Source: an uncultured cyanobacterium (GTDB lineage: Bacteria; Cyanobacteriota; Cyanobacteriia; CAKZMO01). From it: a stretch of 64,000 bases of DNA. Under the pieces are notes generated by a model. The model was not told the DNA's origin. It searched no databases and was given only the letters and a program-made list of their open reading frames with translations. The DNA is taken from positions 1 to 64,000 of the forward strand of contig CAVRCJ010000008.1 of NCBI GenBank assembly GCA_963719515.1. Direction: 5' to 3'. A program made the position numbers and the translations under genes. This document shows positions 10,401-46,462 of the stretch, one piece after another; the stretch's first letter is position 1, and the number at the start of each line of letters is the position of its first letter.

Positions 10401-10465
10401 AGAGTGGGTTCCGTTCTCGTCAAGACTTAATCTTAATGGAGAAGGGGCCGCGATCGCACTGCCGC

Positions 10466-10544
10466 CGTTACCGCCGCACGATTTGCGGTAGCGCTTGGGT
10501 TGTCTTTCCTACATCCAATACATTTGGGAGACAACCCGCAAATG
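10466..10544 (+). promoter_or_regulatory. partial copy of the structured leader (last two hairpins and start codon)
   Basis: CGTTACCGC/GCGGTAGCG stem, then TTGGGTTGTCTTTCCTAC..GGAGACAACCC and ATG ACC TAC; matches the leader 3' ends near 27.85 kb and 42.05 kb. Confidence 0.7.
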
Positions 10545-10677
10545 ACCTACGAAATACCCCAAACCCCTGACGCTCGTCAGGGCACTCCAATTCAGCCGCA
10601 GCTGCGCACTTACGATGAGGAACTTGCTAAAATACAAAGCTGCGATCGCCTTACAACGCCTAGCCCCAACGGTAAGC

Positions 10678-21837: not shown

Positions 21838-22398
21838 TTGGCATTGACCGGGGCAGCACAATGTGAAGCAATGATTCAATCCTTGCAGTGGGAAGATTTG
21901 CGCGCTCTGTGGGAAAGGATTGAGAACCGTAATACTCCGGAGTGGGGTCTGGGAAAAGCCTTTGAATACCTTGTCATACGAGCTTTCCAGCTTGATGGAG
22001 CAGATGTTAAGTATTCGTACAGGGTGAGGTTATTTGGGGAAGAAGTTGAGCAGGTTGATGGTGTCGTTTACTGCTCAGGGCTATCTTGTCTAGTGGAGAG
22101 CAAGGACTTTGCTGACAGGGTCAATGTTGACATAGCACCAATCGCTAAACTGCGTAACCAGCTTTTGCGCCGCCCTGCGAACACGCTTGGCTTAGTATTT
22201 AGTCGAACAGGGTTTACAGATCCTGCCCGCCATCTCTCCTATTTTTCGCTGCCTCAGACAATCCTCCTCTGGAGCGGAGAAGAGATAGAATATGCTTTAG
22301 AGCAAGAATCAATTTGCGAGCTGCTACTGCTCAAATATCGCGTGTGCGTCGAAGATGGACTACCTGACTATGACGTTAGAGAGAGGGACATTCCATGA
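21838..22398 (+). CDS. Mrr-like PD-(D/E)xK restriction endonuclease
   Basis: GKAFEYLV, EQVDG, LVESKD and SRTGFT motifs; start uncertain. Confidence 0.75.
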   Translation: MALTGAAQCEAMIQSLQWEDLRALWERIENRNTPEWGLGKAFEYLVIRAFQLDGADVKYSYRVRLFGEEVEQVDGVVYCSGLSCLVESKDFADRVNVDIAPIAKLRNQLLRRPANTLGLVFSRTGFTDPARHLSYFSLPQTILLWSGEEIEYALEQESICELLLLKYRVCVEDGLPDYDVRERDIP

Positions 22399-22946
22399 CA
22401 GCTTACGTTGTGTGTGAAGGTGAGTGCGATGCGCAGATACTGAAGCGTCTGCTTCCGGAAGAAGCTGTCGGTGACGTTGAGGTTGTTGTGGCGGGTGGGC
22501 TTTCTGCTGTTAAGTCGTTAGCTCGGTCTTTGGTTGTCAGGCGGCAGTGCCCTGTTGCGATCGTGGCGGATGCTGATGCAGTCGTTCCGGAGCAAGTTGA
22601 ACAGCGGCTTCAAGATATACAAGAGATTGTTGGAAATATTGCTGCGAATACGCCTGTCAAGGTGGTGCTGGCTGTTCCTGCTCTTGAAGCTGTCTTCTTT
22701 CAGGATGTTTCTTTACTTTCAAAATGGTTGGGGCACGCGCCTTCTCAAGATATGCTCAATTTGGCAATCTATCAGCCTAAGCAGGCGTTGGTGCAATTGA
22801 TTGCTCAATCGGATAGTATTCAGAGTCAGTCTCATCTGGTAGAGCAGCTTGCCCACAGCGAGGTTGAAGTTCTTCGCGGTGCTCCAGTTATTCAAGAGCT
22901 GATTCAGTTTCTTCAATCTACGCGAGAAACTGCTGGTGCTTTGTGA
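22395..22946 (+). CDS. TOPRIM-like protein (OLD/DUF4276-like)
   Basis: YVVCEGECD, AGG, VADAD and VPALEA motifs; ATGA overlap with the endonuclease gene. Confidence 0.6.
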   Translation: MTAYVVCEGECDAQILKRLLPEEAVGDVEVVVAGGLSAVKSLARSLVVRRQCPVAIVADADAVVPEQVEQRLQDIQEIVGNIAANTPVKVVLAVPALEAVFFQDVSLLSKWLGHAPSQDMLNLAIYQPKQALVQLIAQSDSIQSQSHLVEQLAHSEVEVLRGAPVIQELIQFLQSTRETAGAL

Positions 22947-23088
22947 TGTGGTGCGATCGCGAATAGAATTATATCAAGCGGATAATAGAATTAAAATTGT
23001 TATTTTTAGCTCTCCCAAAGTGCTAGCGCTTTTTTATTTTCTGCCTTTGCTAAACTAATCTAAGATGCCAATAGTGAAGCCGCTAAAA

Positions 23089-24043
23089 ATGTCTAGAGAA
23101 TTGCGATTGAAAATCACATCTTTTTTCGATTTTTGGAGGAAAAAACACGAATTTATTTATGGTTTAGATTTGAGTAAGCGTGACTACGAAATTCATGTGC
23201 TTCTCTGGGCTTCATTGGATGCACTGTCTATTCTGTGGTCAGAAAATTTCGGAAAAGAAGTATGTAAAAATAAAAATAAAAGACGCATCTTTGATGCTTT
23301 TTTAGTCCAATACGGTGACAATATTTTTCAATTCGCCTCATTGCCAGATATCTGGGATCGAGTAGATCAAAAAAATACAAGAATTAGTAAAGATCGCGAA
23401 TTATCTCAGGATGTCTCTGCTTGCCTTCAAACGATTGGAGATCGGCAGACTCCTACTCATGTAAGCAATCGTCAATTACGTCAAACCTCTGATGATTGGA
23501 GCATGAGAGGAGTCGTTGATTTTGTTCTGAGAAAGTACCCCTTGGTGGTGCAGAAATCTCGGCCAGAGAGTATTGATTCTCATAGAAAGGCTGGAAAAGC
23601 TCAGATACGTACTCTCAAACCACGCAAATACGTGGGGAATTGCCTCAATTTGCCCTGAACTGCGGAAATTGTCGTTTTCGGCGAAATCCTTTAGTACCAA
23701 TGCTTTCAGGAGTTCTCTGCACCACTAAGGAAAGTACCCTGATACAAATCGAGTCGACCTTGAAGATTGGGTGGCGCAGTCGCGATATGGCTCGATTGCA
23801 TATAAGGAGATGCGATCTTCTTATATCCACAAAGGTATACCTGGTGCAAGAACACATGGTTTCGACCTATACGAATCTAACGTAAGGCCTGCATATCTCA
23901 GCGGAATTTATACTACACCTCCTAGTATCGGATTCAAGGCTGAATTCATGCTGGCTGTGCTGAAGAAATGCATCGATGCATTTGAATCAGATGCGTTGAT
24001 ACAGCAAAAAGACCCGATTCTAGAAAAATACCGCAAAATGTGA
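23089..24043 (+). pseudogene. HEPN-like protein gene interrupted by a MITE
   Basis: Removing the element and one target copy (199 bp) gives one 251-aa frame ..VLRKYP-DTNRVDLEDWVAQSRYG..MRSSYIHKG with an RxxxxH motif. Confidence 0.75.
23541..23729. mobile_element. 189-bp MITE
   Basis: Inverted ends CTTGGTGGTGCAGA / TCTGCACCACTAAG; 10-bp duplication GAAAGTACCC at 23531-23540 and 23730-23739. Confidence 0.9.
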
Positions 24044-24161: not shown

Positions 24162-25718
24162 GTACCTATTCAGGTGCAGGGATTGACAAAGGGAGACGTT
24201 GCGGTAGCGTTAGTTGATGAGCCCACCACCTGCCTCGGATATTCCAGACCTCAGCGAATTAGAGCAAGCACCGCGCTCTGTGCTGGTAGGGATTATCGTG
24301 CGGCAGCAAGAGCTGATAGAGCAGCTAGCTCGAGAGGTAGAGCGGCTCAAAGGAATCATTGATAGCGATAGCCAGAGTTCGTCGAAACCGCCGTCAAGCG
24401 ACTTGGTGCGACGCAGTGAGAAACCAAAGCCAGCAGAAGAGGGGAAAGAGGATTTGCCCAAAGCCGGCAAGCGGAAAGCAGGGGGACAGCCAGGGCACCA
24501 GGGGAAAACACGCAAGGGATTTGGACGAGTAGATCGATACGAGGTGGTGCATCTAGAGCATTGCCCGAGATGCGGAAGTGGACATATCGAAAGCGTGGGA
24601 CAAAGCTATCGGTGCTACCAGGTGGCGCAGCTGGTGGCCAAGCCGATAGAAGTGGTGGAATACCAGCAGTGGCGGGGATATTGCGGGGGATGTGGTAGCC
24701 ATGTCGCTGCGCCCTTACCCGAGGATGTGGTGGCAGGAGAGGATTTGGGCGTGAGCTTGCAGGCGATGCTGGTGTGGCTGAGTCACTATGGCCACTTATC
24801 CTACGGCAAGCAGCAGGAATGGCTCAAAGAGCTAGGTGATATCGAGGTAGGTGTGGGGACGCTTGTGGCAACGACGCGGCGGGCTAGCCAAGCAGTAGCG
24901 GCAGCGGTGGATGACTTGCAAGCTTGGGCAAAGCAGCAACCACAGCTGCATGTGGATGAAACAGCTTGGCTGGTGAAGGGGGTCAAAGAGTGGTTATGGA
25001 CCATCAGCGGTGAAGGATTTGCGCTCCTCCATGCCGGGGATACCCGCTCGCGCAGTGAGCTGGAGATGCTGCTGGGAAAGAGCTTTGCAGGGGTGCTCAT
25101 CTCCGATGACTACAGCGTATACAACGGCTACCCGGTAGCCGCTCAGCAGAAGTGCCTAGCGCACCTATTGCGGCACTTCAAGCAAGTAGCTAAGCTAAAG
25201 CCCCCGCACCAGAAGGCATTGGCCGAAGCATTCATTGCCTTGATAAAAGAGGCCTTTGACCGCCATCGCCACTACCGCCTCGCAGGCGACAGGGCATCCT
25301 ATAACCTATGGGCTGAGCAATTCAAAGTTACATTAGCCGAGGCAATAGCCGAGTGGAAGCCCAAAGCGGGCCATGCGGCTGGGCTTCTGCTCACCTCATT
25401 GGTGAGCAAGGCGCACCAGTGGTGGTACTTCCTAGACCACCCTCAGGTGCCGCCAGACAACAATTGTGCTGAGCGCTCGCTGCGGCTCGGAGTGACCAAA
25501 CGCAAGGTGTCAGGCGGCTCTCGCTCGATGTCAGGCTTTGAGCACACCGCACGACTATTATCGGTGATTCAGACCTGTCGGGCTCAGGGACGCTCTGCCA
25601 TAGCCTTCGTCGGGCAGGCATTGGCCAAAGCGGCAGGAGCCATCGACTTGGAGGTGTCACTCATCCCTCTCCAGCATCTACAGCCCTGTGCCGTCAACCT
25701 CTAGACCTGAATACGTAC
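24162..25718 (+). mobile_element. IS66-family element A (single-ORF type)
   Basis: Ends GTACCTATTCAGGT / ACCTGAATACGTAC; 8-bp duplication CTTTGACC at 24154-24161 and 25719-25726. Confidence 0.92.
24214..25704 (+). CDS. IS66 family transposase
   Basis: SSKPPSSD, GGQPGH, CxxC zinc motifs, HVDET, SDDY, QKCLAHL and DNNCAERSLR. Confidence 0.92.
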   Translation: MMSPPPASDIPDLSELEQAPRSVLVGIIVRQQELIEQLAREVERLKGIIDSDSQSSSKPPSSDLVRRSEKPKPAEEGKEDLPKAGKRKAGGQPGHQGKTRKGFGRVDRYEVVHLEHCPRCGSGHIESVGQSYRCYQVAQLVAKPIEVVEYQQWRGYCGGCGSHVAAPLPEDVVAGEDLGVSLQAMLVWLSHYGHLSYGKQQEWLKELGDIEVGVGTLVATTRRASQAVAAAVDDLQAWAKQQPQLHVDETAWLVKGVKEWLWTISGEGFALLHAGDTRSRSELEMLLGKSFAGVLISDDYSVYNGYPVAAQQKCLAHLLRHFKQVAKLKPPHQKALAEAFIALIKEAFDRHRHYRLAGDRASYNLWAEQFKVTLAEAIAEWKPKAGHAAGLLLTSLVSKAHQWWYFLDHPQVPPDNNCAERSLRLGVTKRKVSGGSRSMSGFEHTARLLSVIQTCRAQGRSAIAFVGQALAKAAGAIDLEVSLIPLQHLQPCAVNL

Positions 25719-25726
25719 CTTTGACC

Positions 25727-27337
25727 GTAACCGTCCCAGAGATTTAAGGAAGGCTTAGGCATTGCCGGGATCGCACTCAGGTAAATTGGCGACATGAGTG
25801 AAGACATTGAGATCGCCGGGGTCAAGATTCCGAAAAGCGACTGGGAGGCCAGCCCTGCCAGTATGCGACTGCTGGTGACGGTACTCAGTGAGCGATTGGC
25901 AGCATTGGAAGAGCAGATCAAGCAGAACTCGCAGAATTCGTCTAGGCCGCCCTCCTCGGATGGGTTTGGCAAGCAAATAAAGGAAAAGAAGAAGGGCAGA
26001 GCGCCCAAGCGCGAGGGGACGCCCAAAGCGGCTCGGCGAGTGCGCAAGCTGTATCCTCCAGAGGCTTGCAGCGCGGTGCATCAGGTGAAGCCGGAGGTGT
26101 GTGGTTTTTGCGGGGAAGGGCTTCGGGGAGAGGAGAAGCGCCCTGAGCGGCATCAGGTGATAGAAGTGCCGCCCGTATTACCAGAGGTAGTGGAGTACCA
26201 ACTGCACAAGCTCAGCTGCGAGCACTGCGGGGGTGTGACGAGGGCAGCGCTACCGCAAGGGGTGGCTGCATCGGGGTATGGGGAGCGGCTAACGGCTATC
26301 GTCGGGCTCTTGAGCGGACCCTACCGTCAGAGCCACCGGCAAGTATGCGCGCTGATGGAAGAACTGTTTGGCGTTAGGCTATCGCGAGGTGGGGTGGGGC
26401 GGATGCGCCAGGAGATGAGTACAGCGGTAAGCGGGGCGGTCACCGAAGCAAAACGCTATGTGCAATCTCAGCCTGTGGTCAATAGTGACGAGACCAGCTT
26501 CACTCAGGGGAATCGGGATGGCCAGAATGCCCAGAAGAGCAAAGGCTGGCTGTGGGTGTTGGCCACTCCTCTAGTGAGCATCTTCGAGATAGCGCTCTCT
26601 CGCTCGAAGGGGACAGCAAAAGCCCACATCGGGGAGAACTTCAAGGGCATCGTTATCTCAGACCGCTACAGCGCCTACCAGTGGCTAGCACTAGACCAAT
26701 GGCAGGTGTGCTGGGCACATCTTAAACGAGACTTGACGGCGATAGCCCAGCGCAGCGGCGCGTCGAAGGAGATTGGCGAAGCGCTGCTGAGGCGAGAGCG
26801 GCGCTTGTTCCGCTGGTGGCATCGGGTGCGTGATGGCACCCTCACCAGAGAGCAGTTTGCTCTCCATGTCAGACACTTGCGTGCAGGCTTCAAAGCGGAG
26901 CTAGAAGCTGCTGCGGCCCTGCCGATTGCCCAAGGCGAGAAGACGCCGCTCGCCAAAACCGTGCGCACCTGCCGCATGCTGCTCAAAGTGGAGCCTGCTT
27001 TGTGGACTTTTGTCACCACCGTTGGCGTCGAGCCGACCAACAATGCAGCAGAGCGAGCATTGAGACCAGCAGTAATCTGGCGGCGCACCAGCTTTGGCTC
27101 GCAGTCGCAAGCGGGTAGCGAGTTCGTGGCCAGGATGCTGACGGTGAGTGCTTCGTTAAAAGCGCAGCAGCGTAGCCTGCTCGAGTTCCTCACACAAGCT
27201 TGCCGGGCGGCAAGAGGAGGATTAGCACCGCCTTCATTACTGCCGCTGATTCCAGATGACAACCCTCGCCCTGACGATAAGCCGCTACTGGTGAATCCTG
27301 CGCTGGCGGCTTAGAACCATCCTCCAGGGACGGTTAC
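25727..27337 (+). mobile_element. IS66-family element B
   Basis: Perfect 11-bp ends GTAACCGTCCC / GGGACGGTTAC; flanks do not match (CTTTGACC vs GGTGAAAC). Confidence 0.9.
25794..27314 (+). CDS. IS66 family transposase
   Basis: NSSRPPSSD, CxxC, SDET, SDRYSAY, QVCWAHLKRD and PTNNAAERALR. Confidence 0.92.
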   Translation: MSEDIEIAGVKIPKSDWEASPASMRLLVTVLSERLAALEEQIKQNSQNSSRPPSSDGFGKQIKEKKKGRAPKREGTPKAARRVRKLYPPEACSAVHQVKPEVCGFCGEGLRGEEKRPERHQVIEVPPVLPEVVEYQLHKLSCEHCGGVTRAALPQGVAASGYGERLTAIVGLLSGPYRQSHRQVCALMEELFGVRLSRGGVGRMRQEMSTAVSGAVTEAKRYVQSQPVVNSDETSFTQGNRDGQNAQKSKGWLWVLATPLVSIFEIALSRSKGTAKAHIGENFKGIVISDRYSAYQWLALDQWQVCWAHLKRDLTAIAQRSGASKEIGEALLRRERRLFRWWHRVRDGTLTREQFALHVRHLRAGFKAELEAAAALPIAQGEKTPLAKTVRTCRMLLKVEPALWTFVTTVGVEPTNNAAERALRPAVIWRRTSFGSQSQAGSEFVARMLTVSASLKAQQRSLLEFLTQACRAARGGLAPPSLLPLIPDDNPRPDDKPLLVNPALAA

Positions 27338-27472
27338 GGTGAAACACCTATCGAAGCCCTAAAAGAACTGGGTATTGCTAGGCAAGCCTGGATAGATGCA
27401 GCCCAAGCGGAGGACAAACCTATCCCGCCGCCTACTTATCGACCCGTCATTTATCAGCTCAAAACAGCGTGA
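27338..27472 (+). pseudogene. hicB: 3' remnant of a HicB-family antitoxin gene
   Basis: Translates GETPIEALKELGIARQAWIDAAQAEDKPIPPPTYRPVIYQLKTA*, starting exactly at the IS end. Confidence 0.75.
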
Positions 27473-27644: not shown

Positions 27645-27893
27645 TTGCACCCGCGGCAAAACTCCGCTACTATGCCAAGCCATGGGCGCAAATCACATAC
27701 CGTCCAAACTCCGACACCCAAATATTTAGCGCCCCCTGGTTGTGTTGAGACCACTTCCAGGGGACTACACCCGCTGAACCAACCAGCGAGCGCTACTGGG
27801 ATTTTATCCCGAAGTAGCCACCTCGCCCTGTGACCGCGCGGTGGCTAAATTTTTGGGTTGTCTTTCCTACTACCCAAAGAAGACAACCCTCAA
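27645..27893 (+). promoter_or_regulatory. promoter plus structured 5' leader, copy 1
   Basis: TTGCAC-N17-TACTAT, then six hairpins shared with the 42032-42292 copy. Confidence 0.75.
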
Positions 27894-28235
27894 ATAACCT
27901 ACAAAATAATCCAGACCCCTGCCACCAGCCAGGACAGAGCCGCACGCCTAGACATCAACCCTCAAACCGGCGACTACCTCATCGGCGATCGCGAAGCGGA
28001 GGCGCAGCTCTCCAATCGCGAGACCGGCTACAACACCCTGCGGCTGATCGCCATCGGCTCCCTTTATGCGGTCAACAACTGCCGTGACAGCCTCCACGCC
28101 CTCGGCTACGCCCGCCCCGACGAATGGTCTCAGCCCATGCCCATGACGACCGGCGGCATCCTCCGTGGCCTCACCCCCACCGACGTCATGCGCATTCTCA
28201 CCAAGCGCATCCCGCTGCCGCCGCATCAACGCTAA
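27894..28235 (+). CDS. small hypothetical protein, paralog of 41678-42031; expected start codon reads ATA
   Basis: DINPQTGDY..ETGYNTLRLIAIGSLYAVNNCRDSLH.L.YARPDEWS..LRGLTPTDVMRILTKR shared with the paralog. Confidence 0.7.
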   Translation: MTYKIIQTPATSQDRAARLDINPQTGDYLIGDREAEAQLSNRETGYNTLRLIAIGSLYAVNNCRDSLHALGYARPDEWSQPMPMTTGGILRGLTPTDVMRILTKRIPLPPHQR

Positions 28236-40525: not shown

Positions 40526-41587
40526 ATGACTACTACCCTACAGCAGCGCTCTAGCGCTAACGTATGGCAGCAGTTCTGCGAGTGGGTCACCAGCACCAAC
40601 AACCGCCTCTACGTAGGCTGGTTCGGCGTCCTGATGATTCCGACTCTCTTAGCTGCTACCACCTGCTTCCTCATCGCCTTCGTGGCGGCTCCTCCCGTTG
40701 ACATCGACGGCATCCGCGAGCCTGTTGCAGGTTCACTGATGTACGGCAACAACATCATCTCTGGTGCAATTGTTCCGTCATCCAACGCCATCGGTCTACA
40801 CTTCTACCCCATCTGGGAAGCAGCATCACTCGACGAGTGGCTGTACAACGGCGGACCTTACCAGCTGGTGGTATTCCACTTCCTGATTGGCGTCTTCTGC
40901 TACATGGGCCGCGAGTGGGAACTATCCTACCGTCTGGGCATGCGCCCTTGGATTTGCGTTGCTTACTCTGCACCTGTTGCAGCGGCATCTGCAGTCTTCC
41001 TCATCTACCCGATTGGTCAGGGTTCATTCTCTGACGGCATGCCTCTGGGCATCTCGGGTACGTTCAACTTCATGTTCGTGTTCCAGGCCGAGCACAACAT
41101 CCTGATGCACCCCTTCCACATGCTGGGTGTGGCAGGCGTCTTCGGCGGAGCGCTGTTCAGCGCGATGCACGGTTCACTGGTGACCTCTTCACTGGTGCGA
41201 GAGACGACCGAGTCTGAGTCGCAGAACTACGGCTACAAGTTCGGGCAAGAGGAAGAGACCTACAACATCGTTGCAGCGCACGGCTACTTCGGCCGCCTCA
41301 TCTTCCAATATGCATCGTTCAACAACTCCCGCGCACTACACTTCTTCTTGGGCGCATGGCCTGTGGTAGGCATCTGGTTCACGGCGCTGGGCATCAGCAC
41401 GATGGCGTTCAACCTGAACGGGTTCAACTTCAACCAGTCTGTTCTAGACAGCCAGGGCCGGGTCATCAACACCTGGGCGGACATCATCAACCGTGCCAAC
41501 CTGGGTATGGAAGTGATGCACGAGCGCAACGCTCACAACTTCCCGCTTGACCTTGCTGCTGCTGAGGCTCCTGCTATCAACGGCTAG
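40526..41587 (+). CDS. psbA: photosystem II D1 protein (Glu130 form), 353 aa
   Basis: Unambiguous D1; same protein as copy 1 except one N-terminal Thr. Confidence 0.99.
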
Positions 41588-41616: not shown

Positions 41617-41649
41617 AAAAGCGCCTCCCGCTGCGGGGGGCGCTTTTTT
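41617..41649. terminator. bidirectional intrinsic terminator after psbA copy 2
   Basis: AAAAGCGCCTCCCGCTGCGGGGGGCGCTTTTTT. Confidence 0.85.
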
Positions 41650-41677: not shown

Positions 41678-42031
41678 CTAGCGCGGCTTTTGGGGCAGCG
41701 AGACCCGCTTGGTGAGAATGCGCATGACGTCGGTGGGGGTGAGGCCGCGCAGGCCCATGTTGGTGTTGCTGAGGGGAATGGGGTCAGACCATTCGTCGGG
41801 GCGGGCGTAGCTGAGCTTGTGCAAGGTGTCGCGGCAGTTGTTGACCGCGTAGAGGGAGCCGACGGCGATCAGCCGCAGGGTGTGGTAGCCGGTTTCGCTA
41901 TGGTCTCCGATTTGGTAGTCGCCGGTTTGGGGGTTGATGCCGAGGTCGTAGGCGGGCTGGGGGGTGTTGCCGGGTGCGGCCAAGGCGCGGCTGTGGTCAG
42001 CGCTGGGCTGGCCGGAGAGGTTATCTGTCAT
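41678..42031 (-). CDS. small hypothetical protein, paralog of 27894-28235
   Basis: 117 aa; ATG preceded by AGGAG inside a hairpin; conserved core LRLIAVGSLYAVNNCRDTLH..YARPDEWS. Confidence 0.75.
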   Translation of the reverse strand: MTDNLSGQPSADHSRALAAPGNTPQPAYDLGINPQTGDYQIGDHSETGYHTLRLIAVGSLYAVNNCRDTLHKLSYARPDEWSDPIPLSNTNMGLRGLTPTDVMRILTKRVSLPQKPR

Positions 42032-42292
42032 TTTGGGGTTGTCTCCTAGATTTGCTTTTGAAGTAGGAAAGACAACCCAAACGCTCAGCCACCCCGCAAA
42101 TTAAGGCGAGGTGGCTAGTCTGGGATAAAATCCCATTAGCTCTCGCTGGTTAGGTCAGCGGGGGTTAGCCGTCTGGAAGTGGTGACAACACGACCAGGCG
42201 GCGCGGCTAAATATTTGGGGTGTCGGAATCTGGACGCGGTGTGATTTGCGTCCATGGCTTGGCATGGTAGCGGAGTTTGAGGCCTGGTGCAA
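42032..42292 (-). promoter_or_regulatory. promoter plus structured 5' leader, copy 2
   Basis: Minus strand TTGCAC-N17-TACCAT and the same hairpin series as 27645-27893. Confidence 0.75.
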
Positions 42293-42450: not shown

Positions 42451-42850
42451 GTGATTTGCTCGCCGAAAAGACGTAGGTTGGAGCGGTCAAAGGTAGGGGT
42501 CCCAGGGGCCGACGACTGGTTCGCCACTTTTCTCTTTTTTGGCGAGTTCGAGGTTGAGGGTGAGGAGTTTTTCGAGGATGTCGTCGTTGGGGCTGAAGCC
42601 GTAGGCAGCTAGTACCAGCGCGTCGAGCTGTTTGTGGAGTTTGTAGAGCTGGCTGGCGGGTTCATCAAAGTAGGCGTTGTAGAGTTTGGTGATGCCCCAC
42701 TGTTTTTGCTCCATTTGCTGGCTGCGGTAGTCGTGGAGTTCGAGGGCTTTAGCGCGGATATTTTGGACGGCCTTTTGGGTGGGAGTTTGAGGGAAGGGGA
42801 AGGTTTCGAAGCAAGTTGTGTTTGTATATCGAGTATCACTTTTCAAAGTA

Positions 42851-44007
42851 TAGCAATCCTGTTTGATTTATGAGAAGGAGCCATACCTGTGCAGTTTGGG
42901 GAAATCGAAGGTGTCCAACCTGAAGAACTGCTCAAACAGGGCTTTGAGTGCCGGAAACGATGGACACAACCCAGACATCCGCCTAAGCCAGGTCTTGCCT
43001 TGAAGCCAAGCATCTTCAATAGGGTTCTGAGTCGGGTCATTGGGGTCAAAACGAACACAGTGAATCTTCCATTCTTCTTGCGTAAGCCCCTCGTTCACCT
43101 GGGCTAAATACTCCTTAAGCTCGCCAGAGCGATGATAGCTGGCCCCATCCCAAAGAATGAGTAACCGCTGGTGGGGAAACTGAGCTTGTAAAGACTTCAG
43201 GTAAGCAATGGTACAAGCGGTGTTGCCCTTCTCATGCGCTTCGATAAATAACCGCTTGCTCACTAGGTCCACTGCCCCGTAGTAGGTTTGGCGCTCTCGC
43301 TCATTGACAACCGGCACTACCACCCGCTCATCAGTTCGCCCCCAAACATATCCTTGTAGGTCACCGCTCAGAAGGTGACACTCATCAAAGAACAGCACCC
43401 TCAGCTGCCCTTTGGCAATCGCCTCGCGGTAGAGCGCCAGCAGAGCGCAGATTTCGGCTTTTTTGCTGCCACCGCCTTAGCGTCCGCCTTGGGGTTGACC
43501 TTGCCGCTCTTCTTCCAGCTGATGCCAGCAGCCTCAAACAGGTCGTAGTAGCTTTGCTTCGACTCGTAGGCCACATCGTACACCTCAGCCAAGTGGTGCT
43601 CCAATTCGCTCAACTCCCAAATCGCCTTTTGCTGTAACCAGCTCAGCACCGCTGCCTTCTGCTGGGTCTCTAGATAGCTTTTTCGGCCCTTGTGCTGGGG
43701 CTTAAAGCCAGCTACGCCCCAGCTTTCGTAAGCTTGTTTCCAGTTGCTCACTGCACCCATCGATACATCGAGTATCCCGACGATCGCCTCATACCTATAG
43801 CCTTGGTAGAACAGCTTCACCGCTAGTGCCTTTTTCACTTGCCTGCCATCTCGTTGTTGACGGATGAAGGCTTTGAGCTCCTCCACTGCAGCAGTTTTAT
43901 TAGGTTTAGCGGGTGTCGTTAGCATTGCTCAGGGCCTCTCAGTATCAGCGCTTTAGTCTCCTCCGTAATTATACTGGCCCTACTCCACGAATCACCTCGG
44001 ATTGCTA
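42851..44007 (-). mobile_element. IS630-family element, 1157 bp
   Basis: Ends TAGCAATCC / GGATTGCTA; TA duplication at 42849-42850 and 44008-44009. Confidence 0.93.
42868..43925 (-). CDS. IS630 transposase in two frames joined by a predicted -1 frameshift
   Basis: HTH frame ends VAAKK at A AAA AAG (43458-43464); -1 frame continues KAEICALL..VLFFDE..WDGASYH..NPIE. Confidence 0.88.
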
Positions 44008-46462
44008 TAGAGCATTGGGCAGATATCCACAACCGGTGGTGTTCGGATGTAAGAATTCCCAGAATATAGAAGTCATTGGTTGCAACGACTGCAGTGGAGT
44101 CTCCTAGCAGGAAGTTACAGCTTGCAGGGCAAAATATGAACCACTTTGAATGTCTAGGAGTAGCAAAGTAGAAGTTGACATCCTTTAGAGCTTTTCTCAT
44201 GTCTGAACGAATTCGCCAATACTTCCACCAGTTCAAAATAGCCCATTCATCTTTAACCTTGCCTCTCTGAGGCTTGACATACTTCCTGACATGCGAAAAA
44301 GGCATGAAATAATTACTCGCCTCTTCCAGAGGCAAATTGTCAAAGTCTATGATCCATCTTTGAGGTTCAAAGTTTGGACTTGCTGTCAAGCTACGAGCAT
44401 CGATAAAAGGCTTAACAACAACTTTGTTTTTTGGCTCTATCGACAGCCACTTGCTTGCTTCTTCAGAATCAATAATGAAATGCTTTCCTCGAGGCTCAAC
44501 TCCTTTGAAGCATAGATTCAAATTTGATTTGAGCCGAGACGAAACTCCTGCAATATTGATTCTGGATTCAAAAGAGGAATTGATTTGAGAGACTATTTTA
44601 TTGTCTAAGTATAATTCCTTTGAATCACTCTTTGACCAATTGACAATACTGACATGTACTTTTGCTTCGCCAGACCAAGGCTGAGTCGAGATGGCCTCGT
44701 GTATAACACCCTCGTGTCTCAATAAATAATCTAGAGAAGCTGTGCGGGCTAGTCCTTGACTAATTGAATTTGTACCTACGAGTCCAGCTCTTTCCAGGCC
44801 TTCGATATTTTCGTGCGCCAGTCTAAACCAATAGATGCAAAGATCTACTTTGTCTTTGACTTCAGGAAACACCTCACAGACCTTCTCGACGTATTCGTCT
44901 CCTAAGTCTGTCTTCATTCGAGATCTACCAAGGAAAGGTGGATTCCCAATAATCGCATCCGCCTTAGGCCACTCCGTGAACAGCGCATCTGCGCAAACAA
45001 TATTCTTATCCAACGTATCCAACGGCAGCGCCGGCTCAAACAACCCCAGCCGATCGATCGCCACCTTCCGCGCAATCATCAGCGTCACCCGCGCCAGCTC
45101 CACCGCAAACGGATTATTATCAATGCCAAAAAACTGATTCGGCGTAATGAACCCCATCTGCATCTGTTCTCGGGGCGATCGCCGTCGCTCAGCAATCTTC
45201 TCCAGCAGCATTTGCTCAATCTGCTTCAGCTCCTGGTAGGCGATGTACAAAAAATTCCCCGACCCACAGGCCGGGTCCAGCACCCGATACGCCTGCAGCT
45301 CAAGCTGTAGCTTCTCCAATTCCCCAATCGTGCCCGCCGCCTCAATCCGCTCCTCCCAATAGCGAGAAATCGTCGGGCGCACAATTTTCATAATGTCCGC
45401 CTCCGCCGTGTAGTGGATGCCGTGGGCGTGACGCTCTTTCTCATCAATGGCCGACTCAAAGACGTTGCCGAAGATTGCCGGACGCACCATGCTCCAGTCC
45501 TCAATCGCCGACACCTCTAAAAACTTCAGCTCTTCCTTGGTTAGCTCCAGCGGGTGAATCTCAGCGAACAGCCCCCCGTTGAAATAGTCCACCCCCTGGA
45601 AGCGACCCACTGGCGTCATCCCCGGCGTATTCATCGCCTGGAACAGGCCCCGCAGCACATCATACGAACTCTCGCCGCTCTCCAAACAGTCCTTCACGCA
45701 GCGCAGAAAAATGCTGTGGGGCAGCAGCTTCCGGTCTTCGGCGAACATGGCCAGCACGCACTGCAGCACAAACCGCTGCGCCACCAGCGTATCTATCCCT
45801 CGCTTTTTCAGCTCCACCAGCAGCTCACCCATCTGCCGCGCCGCCGTCTCCGTCACCTCCACCTGGTTATTGCGAAACACCGGCTCGCGGTTCACCTTTT
45901 CCATAAAGGCGAAGGTCTCCACCTGCTGCGGCAGCTGCTCCAGCGTTATTGTGTCTACCGGCGTATCGATCTGAGTGTCAAAGTCGTAAATCCAAAACTC
46001 GTCAAAATTGCACAGCATCACATAGCGGGGCCGGTTGGGCACCGCCCGCTGCCAGTAATCAAACGCCTGAGAGTAATGCTTGCCGAGCTTCTCCCCACGC
46101 TTCTTCATCTCAATCAATACGCGGGGCTTCCACACCAAGTCAGCAAAGCCCGTCTTGCCGGTTTTGCTGCCCTTTTTGATGCGTTGCTCGTATTCTGCGC
46201 CCGCCTCAAGCGCCCCCTCATGGCCGAAGGCGCGGAAAAAACGGTCTAGAAACGTTTGTGCCTCTCCCTTCTCATCCCCCCGGATATGCTGGTCGCAGAA
46301 ATTGACAAAATCCTGGAGGCGCTCGGAGGTGGAGGACACAGATTGGCTAGACGTTTAGTGAGGTGTGGTGCCTACAGTTCTAGCAGATTTCTACAGGGGC
46401 TTCACTCAGGCAACGTAAGCGATCGCCTAGCGGCAGCGCAGCCTAAGCAACTCGCAGGCGGC

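Follow-up and report, generated by a model that had tools for sequence, protein, structure and literature searches.

The DNA considered here is a stretch of 64,000 nucleotides from an uncultured cyanobacterium (contig CAVRCJ010000008.1, hereafter the window), recognisable as cyanobacterial by its two psbA genes. An initial annotation described in it a module in which a conserved promoter and a leader of several hairpins precede a small protein, and proposed that an RNA switch controls this protein. The question raised by the locus is how such a leader could act on the gene behind it, and what kind of genetic system the two would form. The answer reached in this work is that the module is probably an antisense-controlled translational switch.

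The module in the window

Copy 1 lies on the plus strand. Its sense promoter, TTGCAC-N17-TACTAT, occupies 27645–27673 (TTGCAC at 27645–27650, TACTAT at 27668–27673), with a predicted start near 27680. The leader then comprises the 5' hairpin P1 of the computed fold (27683–27706); segment a (27713–27730), the activator or anti-anti-SD segment, placed by duplex energy and RNAalifold as the ON-fold partner of segment a'; and the hairpins P3 (27733–27763) and P4 (27772–27788, with a 7-nt loop), both with hypervariable loops and both delimited by covariation and loop comparison. Further downstream are P6 (27815–27847), supported by covariation, whose 3' arm overlaps a'; the switching strand a' itself (27844–27862), made of the end of P6 and the 5' arm of the SD hairpin; and P7 (27855–27889), the hairpin that hides the ribosome-binding site (RBS), with AGAAG at 27878–27882. 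On the opposite strand, a candidate antisense −10 box, TAAAAT, is read from the sequence at 27801–27806, within the GGGAT/ATCCC stem (P5). The cis-antisense RNA predicted from it (27680–27794, minus strand) would start near 27794, form two stem-loops, continue into the complement of a, and reach at least 27713.

Copy 2 runs on the minus strand from 42292 to 41678, a strand assignment absent from the initial annotation. Its sense promoter, TTGCAC-N17-TACCAT, is at 42264–42292, and its leader (42032–42257) contains P1 (42231–42254), a (42203–42224), P3 (42173–42197) and P4 (42144–42160), followed in the 3' part by P6 (42086–42117), a' (42071–42090), P7 (42036–42078) and the SD (42043–42047, AGGAG). 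The corresponding putative antisense −10 box, TAAAAT at 42126–42131 on the plus strand, would set a start near 42138 and direct transcription towards 42224–42257. The small protein of this copy (41678–42031, minus strand) is intact at 117 aa, with a variable Pro-rich N-terminus followed by the conserved 65-aa beta-alpha-beta domain, and a terminator hairpin at 41617–41647 is common to copy 2 and the convergent psbA gene (40526–41587).

The promoter of the form TTGCAC-N17-TAC(T/C)AT and all six stems listed at the outset are present in both copies, whose leaders are ~81% identical over 243 nt. The leaders are structured as claimed, since their folding beats that of shuffled sequences with z of −6.5 (copy 1) and −6.3 (copy 2), and 0 of 200 shuffles were as good. 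That each full copy carries a small protein holds for copy 2 but is doubtful for copy 1, where comparison with copy 2 places ATA at the start codon of an otherwise open frame of 113 codons (27894–28235, plus strand). With ATA and AGAAG in place of ATG and AGGAG, copy 1 is probably a silenced copy, its frame poorly translated or silent to judge from these letters. The TTG at 27858, from which a longer frame of 125 codons runs, lies inside the anti-SD arm and was rejected as the true start. Besides this lost start codon, the initial annotation had missed segment a, the antisense −10 box and the copy number of the module.

A remnant of a third copy, retaining only a', the SD hairpin and the first codons, is found at 10490–10580 (plus strand). 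Within the interval 10449–10615 it follows a HIP1 site, and its SD hairpin lies just 5' of a gene for a FAD protein at 10615, the translation of which it might influence.

Copy number and distribution

The two full copies of the window are real, but they are two of about 60 with an intact leader in the same genome. An iterated profile search of the six-frame translation (E 0.01 or better) returned 78 matches to the protein family, and 62 copies were analysed, after exclusion of one duplicate match and one without a findable start. The upstream regions fall into three large subfamilies (26, 21 and 16) and some small groups. The layout TTGnnn-N17/18-TAnnnT followed by a leader of 208–236 nt recurs in 60 of the 62, so the conserved promoter stands as a conserved layout, whereas a strict sigma-70 scan found none and passes neither window copy; the promoter claim is therefore based on conservation across copies. 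As the copies are kin, such counts overstate their independence.

The family is present in each of the 11 genomes of the order that were searched, at 1 to 75 matches per genome, and one scan gave 332 loci, mostly of Nostocales. In a survey of the phylum it was detected in at least 16 of 151 genomes, a range that is underestimated, with at most 38 scored candidates per genome. The family forms 797 clusters at 50% identity, and it is nearly missing from mobile collections (one plasmid, no phage, one viral contig). Six copies of genome G159 (L269, L278, L282, L284, L285 and L287) have an SD hairpin loop longer by ~60–75 nt with the other leader parts kept, and in L267 of genome G162 a tRNA-like sequence, recognised by eye, stands in place of the 5' part of the leader, which suggests truncation at an insertion site.

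The protein

Members of the family are 79–158 aa long and share a conserved domain of 65 residues, predicted as strand-helix-strand (pLDDT 87 in a 75-residue model), in which G16 is invariant, W39 is conserved at 99% and H29 at 81% among 149 sequences. The core is under purifying selection (dN/dS 0.21 over 143 paralogue pairs), and in 8 of 60 copies the reading frame is broken while the leader is retained. None of 53 members has a predicted transmembrane segment, the maximal 19-residue hydropathy being 1.2 and none reaching 1.6, so the sequences describe a soluble protein.

Searches of Pfam, NCBIfam, PHROG, PADLOC and PDB sequences gave no fitting family for the protein; the sole match in a PADLOC scan of 39 members was a weak one to DrmMII (E 0.0015, in two of them). 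Fold searches with the 75-residue model reached a best VIA Z of 4.0 and best Foldseek E values of 0.12–1.5, and weak rows of ferredoxin-like half-folds (MinE, PII, dodecin) were never above background; with structural matches only at that level, no fold is claimed or excluded. Matches in the ESM Atlas were confined to unnamed cyanobacterial clusters, and every homologue whose database name was seen is a "hypothetical protein". The initial view that this is not a named family is thus borne out, without a fitting match in Pfam, NCBIfam or Rfam.

Two exclusive folds of the leader

In the OFF fold, the leader forms the local hairpins P3–P7 and the SD is hidden by P7. Over 24 family-A leaders, 88% of the cells of these hairpins are paired, and 15 of 41 pairs show two-sided changes (shuffle mean 7.8; 1/500), in keeping with the stem conservation reported from the two copies. 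In the ON fold, segment a, just 3' of the 5' hairpin, pairs with a', that is, with the end of P6 and the anti-SD arm of P7. RNAalifold gives this pairing unprompted, with an exchange of A-U (13) and G-C (9), and the duplex of copy 1 has a computed energy of −21.1 kcal/mol, compared with −8.4 for shuffled sequences, none of which was as good (0 of 100).

The a:a' pairing is not peculiar to the window. With windows anchored by hand-made patterns, the duplex was stronger than mononucleotide shuffles in 57 of 60 copies from three divergent leader subfamilies, and in 50 of 60 the pairing was better with the copy's own partner than, on average, with partners taken from paralogues; with a wider, unanchored window the count was 77 of 111 leaders. 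In the aligned a:a' columns, 87.5% of cells are paired and 18 two-sided changes occur against 8.1, both values being higher than in any of 500 shuffles; counted as pairs that show a two-sided change, the result (4) is not above shuffles (392/500).

Energetically, the OFF and ON folds are close. When a is constrained to stay unpaired, opening the RBS is computed to cost 9.1 instead of 3.5 kcal/mol in copy 1, and 13.2 instead of 8.7 in copy 2; the medians obtained on blocking a rise from 5.7 to 9.6, from 6.5 to 8.4 and from 10.1 to 14.6 kcal/mol. An increase of 1 kcal or more was computed for 41 of 60 copies when a was blocked, and for 12 of 60 with a control block. In 14 of 60 copies ON is the dominant pairing at equilibrium, and most family-B copies show next to none of it. 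Taken as two computed folds, covariation and RBS opening costs, these results support the proposal of an RNA switch in control of a small protein. An attenuator based on a leader peptide was rejected, as the ORFs from the first ATG of the leaders have 2–62 codons, or are absent, and share no common length.

Hypervariable loops

The statement that most loops diverge proved correct mainly for two of them. In 47 close paralogue pairs, the divergence of the P3 and P4 loops (0.49 and 0.46) exceeds that of fourfold sites (0.26), the P6 loop (0.19) and the P7 loop (0.30), and in genome G017 (36 pairs) the corresponding values are 0.56 and 0.54 against 0.15, 0.20 and 0.15; P3 and P4 thus outpace synonymous sites two- to fourfold, in a comparison where 9 of 120 loops were unparsed and the paralogue pairs are not independent. 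No two of the 60 copies share both loops, while two copies of G017 do. A small-scale example comes from close family-C copies of genome G000 that are clustered a few kb apart in C18 (21075, 28152, 34156) and C1 (256986, 259162): their P6 loops are identical and their P7 loops identical in four, while P3 and P4 differ.

No sense-strand partner for the variable loops was found within their own element, where the longest complement averages 4.7 nt over 111 loops, the value in paralogues being 4.8 nt. The opposite strand is therefore the sole complement of the P3 and P4 loops.

The predicted cis-antisense RNA

On the opposite strand between P4 and P6, a −10-like hexamer followed 6–7 nt later by AG is present in 59 of 60 copies, where 6.6 would be expected, as well as in 11 of 11 copies of G017, a genome of another family, and in 9 of 9 copies from congeners; the pattern had been drawn up on these very groups, apart from most of the G017 copies. 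Outside the genus the strict pattern matched 1 of 6, in a set with wrongly called starts and with CATAAT as its hexamer. Under a widened rule, set afterwards (one mismatch from TATAAT, with A2 and T6 forced), the opposite strand carries the hexamer in 96 of 111 leaders, against 12.4 expected, 11 for the sense strand and none in two control windows. This set includes 31 leaders added by eye, namely those with a visible long leader among 45 loci, and excludes repressor-type, broken and truncated loci. Eight different one-mismatch variants of TATAAT occur and the perfect consensus was never seen; in G017, the hexamer persists where the P5 hairpin is missing.

An RNA begun at this point would start at the foot of P4, form two stem-loops and cover a. 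By eye, the leader alignments hold no conserved antisense −35 box, no intrinsic terminator was found for the predicted RNA, and the strict promoter scan passes neither promoter. The U-turn motif was counted in 45 of 111 antisense loops and 23 of 111 sense loops, both being counts without a control set.

Relatives with other front ends

In other genomes, relatives without the long leader often adjoin genes for DNA-binding proteins: among 22 loci scanned, the gene next to the family gene encodes HTH_3 in seven and RHH_5 in two, which indicates that the family gene is under dedicated control either way. Some relatives are placed as Cro would be, divergently from an HTH or RHH gene, with an integrase downstream in L056 and a RecD2 helicase in L055. 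Of two loci (L057:1827–3170, plus strand; L047:2001–3220, plus strand), one has its divergent repressor joined to an HNH nuclease and the other has it at the head of a Pepco-caspase pair, and DUF7662-HTH fusion regulators were observed directly 5' of the family gene at L046:1867–2373 and L051:2040–2528.

A further arrangement is seen in 64 loci (L175–L246) from a set of 78 that are mostly of Nostocales: their leader is only a short one with a single hairpin, preceded by a long palindrome rich in AT; the family-A leader profile matches none of the 78. The 64 palindrome-type loci have no adjacent repressor in view, and their leader hairpin contains HIP1. A tree of 65 core domains rejects a single clade for the long-leader proteins (p-AU 0.001; an alignment of 66 columns in which three rows were badly cut, with two loci passed over and many of the repressor labels assigned by eye), and this suggests that the family gene was repeatedly swapped between RNA and protein control.

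Genomic setting and movement

Both full copies were said to sit at the ends of defence islands, and the genome-wide setting agrees. On the promoter side, the adjoining 2 kb are poor in GC (0.532 versus 0.569, p 6.5e-8), and the other side, at 0.583, is not. Toxin-antitoxin (TA), restriction or nuclease families occur among the three nearest upstream ORFs in 15 of 40 copies (19 when TIR, NACHT and Roc are included) and among the two nearest downstream ORFs in 4 of 40; around 20 control genes, three ORFs each gave 1 such case (2 with TIR, NACHT or Roc). This survey covered 40 of the 58 other copies, with ORFs called mechanically and Pfam names classified by us.

Within the window, copy 1 comes after Uma2, Mrr-like and two IS66 genes, and copy 2 after an MmeI-type gene interrupted by a transposase. 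Regarding the latter, the MmeI-type restriction-modification gene (43919–46339 and 42487–42846, minus strand) is apparently split by a two-ORF IS630-like element at 42868–43925. In the island of copy 1, at 21838–23658 (plus strand), a weak Mrr-like nuclease is followed by two proteins of 183 and 197 aa without a Pfam or NCBIfam match, and the three together are a possible unknown defence system. The two IS66 transposases stand in tandem (24214–27314), and the second cuts off a short gene whose end, at 27302–27472 (plus strand), we take to have the look of a HicB-type antitoxin.

Across the genome, the module stands at the 3' end of four of seven psbA copies. For 13 congener loci, the flanks lay more than 5 kb from any copy in the present genome in seven, were roughly syntenic in four and had no match in two. 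HIP1 is present within 120 nt upstream of 35 of 60 copies, compared with 198 of 1340 controls, and at three junctions with relatives. HIP1 is described as promoting transformation and recombination (10.1101/2024.09.10.611283), and we infer that the modules spread by transformation at HIP1. The module itself has no transposase or integrase, no terminal repeats or target duplications are conserved at its ends by eye, and no integrase, primase or rep gene was found among 194 ORFs adjoining 40 copies.

Comparison with known systems

The initial annotation likened the module both to type I toxin mRNAs and to C4-antisense or antirepressor leaders. The RNA logic fits the former: type I TA mRNAs hide their RBS, as the computed folds and covariation find here. 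A typical type I toxin has fewer than 60 aa and a transmembrane helix, SymE and RalR being exceptions, and the family protein is unlike this usual short transmembrane form in its length and its count of 0 of 53. The likeness to C4 was not upheld, with no Rfam match and no complementary target for the loops in their own element; the Rfam scan that had been suggested gave no gathering match in the window and nothing relevant to E 1 in 12 loci. We count the module neither among the proven type I systems nor with C4/CI.

The closest parallel in logic is timPR, an enterobacterial type I toxin-antitoxin system (PMC11228461, PMC13000454). In these accounts it likewise has a long 5' leader, a stem-loop that hides the SD, long-range activation without processing, and an antitoxin RNA that blocks the activating element; TimP, however, is a small inner-membrane toxin, and its activation requires a pseudoknot. 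The present module differs in the predicted location of its antisense gene, on the opposite strand within the leader, in its soluble protein of 79–158 aa and in its ~60 copies. No sequence or Rfam link to timPR was found.

Genomic multiplicity is shared with aapA/IsoA of Helicobacter pylori, described with several chromosomal copies, a cis-antisense RNA with its −10 box, strictly module-specific repression and metastable SD-hiding hairpins, but with six copies, a 30-aa peptide and activation by 3' trimming (PMC6733600). As reported there, IsoA covers the SD region, whereas the RNA predicted here would cover the upstream activator and not the SD. Among cyanobacteria, MsoT1/MsoA1 of Microcystis pairs a gene with an antisense RNA proposed as its antitoxin (PMC12390103); MsoT1 has two predicted transmembrane helices in that description and the present family none, so the two are set apart by description and not by sequence. 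Apart from this pair (PMC12390103), no cyanobacterial type I candidate was found in the literature searched. The P1 C4 and P4 CI leaders, before icd, ant and kil, also join a structured leader to a small gene in a mobile-element-like setting (PMC8201110 for P1). In contrast to them, the regulator of the present module is predicted on the opposite strand, its loops lack a sense-strand target, and neither Rfam nor protein families give a match.

No earlier description of the family was found in the openly accessible articles searched. The module also has a counterpart in its proposed logic among I-complex plasmids, where an antisense RNA competes with an activating long-range pairing, a pseudoknot. 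Their RNAI/Inc acts on rep as an antisense stem-loop RNA in which the letters of the loop set specificity and incompatibility, but the target described is a plasmid replication initiator, while the module is chromosomal, has no rep gene and carries two variable loops (PMC10724649). A 2026 screen of cyanobacterial RNA structures is described as covering 931 KEGG orthologue groups only, and for this reason probably did not include the family (PMC12873609).

Proposed mechanism and alternative readings

In the mechanism we propose, mRNA from the sense promoter would first fold into the local hairpins P6 and P7, with the RBS hidden; over time, a would invade a', open P7 and free the RBS. A second promoter within the leader would produce an antisense RNA of ~80–120 nt, whose two loops would contact those of P4 and P3 in the mRNA of the same copy, and which would then cover a and either lock the OFF state or trigger decay of the duplex. 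It is inferred that this RNA is made and is less stable than the mRNA. Should it become exhausted, because the locus is lost or because phage or stress stops transcription, stored mRNA would turn ON and yield a growth-inhibiting soluble protein. A new copy would be addictive only if resident antisense RNAs did not silence it, so that selection would favour new loops, and these would let dozens of copies coexist, each guarding the island that it borders.

Given the antisense switch, a toxic protein is somewhat the likelier case, argued from tight dedicated control, diversifying keys such as an addiction module requires, positions at island edges and loss of the ORF in 8 of 60 copies. Whether the whole operates as timPR does, as an addiction module akin to type I toxin-antitoxin systems but with its antisense gene within the leader, we regard as an even call; in the cited account, such modules have established roles in post-segregational killing and in stabilising islands (PMC5367252). 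Weighing against this reading are the solubility and greater length of the protein, its lack of a match to toxin families or folds, its rarity in plasmid and phage collections, the negative searches for an antisense −35 box and terminator, and the equilibrium results, in which ON already prevails in some copies and hardly forms in most of family B. The fullest version, a new cyanobacterial TA family with a soluble toxin, 40–75 copies per genome, private two-loop keys under diversifying selection, service as addiction guards of defence-island edges or as sensors of transcription shut-off, and several switches between RNA and HTH/RHH control, is offered tentatively, at rather less than even chances.

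The same antisense-locked switch might instead govern a non-toxic regulator of a mobile element, such as an antirepressor, an island derepressor or a recombination helper, with the loops acting as immunity or incompatibility groups. The solubility of the protein, its lack of a toxin signature, the Cro-like relatives beside HTH and RHH genes with their downstream integrase and helicase, and the loop-specific antisense RNAs that I-complex plasmids are reported to place on a non-toxin rep mRNA (PMC10724649) all speak for it. We consider it unlikely nevertheless, since the 194 ORFs adjoining 40 copies include no integrase, primase or rep, sixty copies that do not cross-react would have no clear reason, and eight of 60 copies have lost the ORF but kept the leader. 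It is less probable still that there is no antisense RNA, the AU-rich hexamer being a site for an RNase or another protein and the folds being switched by protein, ligand, temperature or processing. An A-N-N-N-U pattern like that of the hexamer resembles an RNase E site, the antisense −35 box and terminator were not found, and the two folds are close in energy; yet the hexamer variants are alike only in coming near to TATAAT when the opposite strand is read, the mismatch falling at position 1, 3, 4 or 5, the hexamer is kept in G017 without the P5 hairpin, and a ligand or protein site should conserve loops, while P3 and P4 outrun synonymous sites.

Two further readings seem to us remote. The module could be a passive repeat whose structures protect the transcript or are by-products of HIP1 recombination, any convergent transcription being mere interference; the upstream enrichment of HIP1 and the three HIP1 junctions would suit this very improbable case, against which stand the purifying selection on the protein, the covariation of both folds and loop change faster than synonymous. 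Least probable is a C4/CI type of control, in which a fragment cut from the sense leader would regulate targets of the same transcript in trans: a multi-hairpin leader does precede a small gene, and a' is complementary to one upstream and one downstream segment, but Rfam gives no match, the variable loops have no sense-strand target, and Pfam, NCBIfam and PHROG hold no Icd, Ash or Ant family match to the protein.

Implications

Type I toxin-antitoxin systems are nearly unknown in cyanobacteria, with one membrane-toxin candidate described (PMC12390103), and aapA/IsoA, a known multicopy example, is reported at six copies (PMC6733600). The predictions made for the module are exact and cheap to test. 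If the antisense-controlled switch and its toxin are real, a single chromosome with dozens of orthogonal copies would offer a natural experiment on the diversification of antisense specificity, and on whether addiction modules hold defence islands in place. The copies would also provide ready orthogonal RNA switches for cyanobacterial engineering, and a large, unnamed family of proteins would acquire a function.
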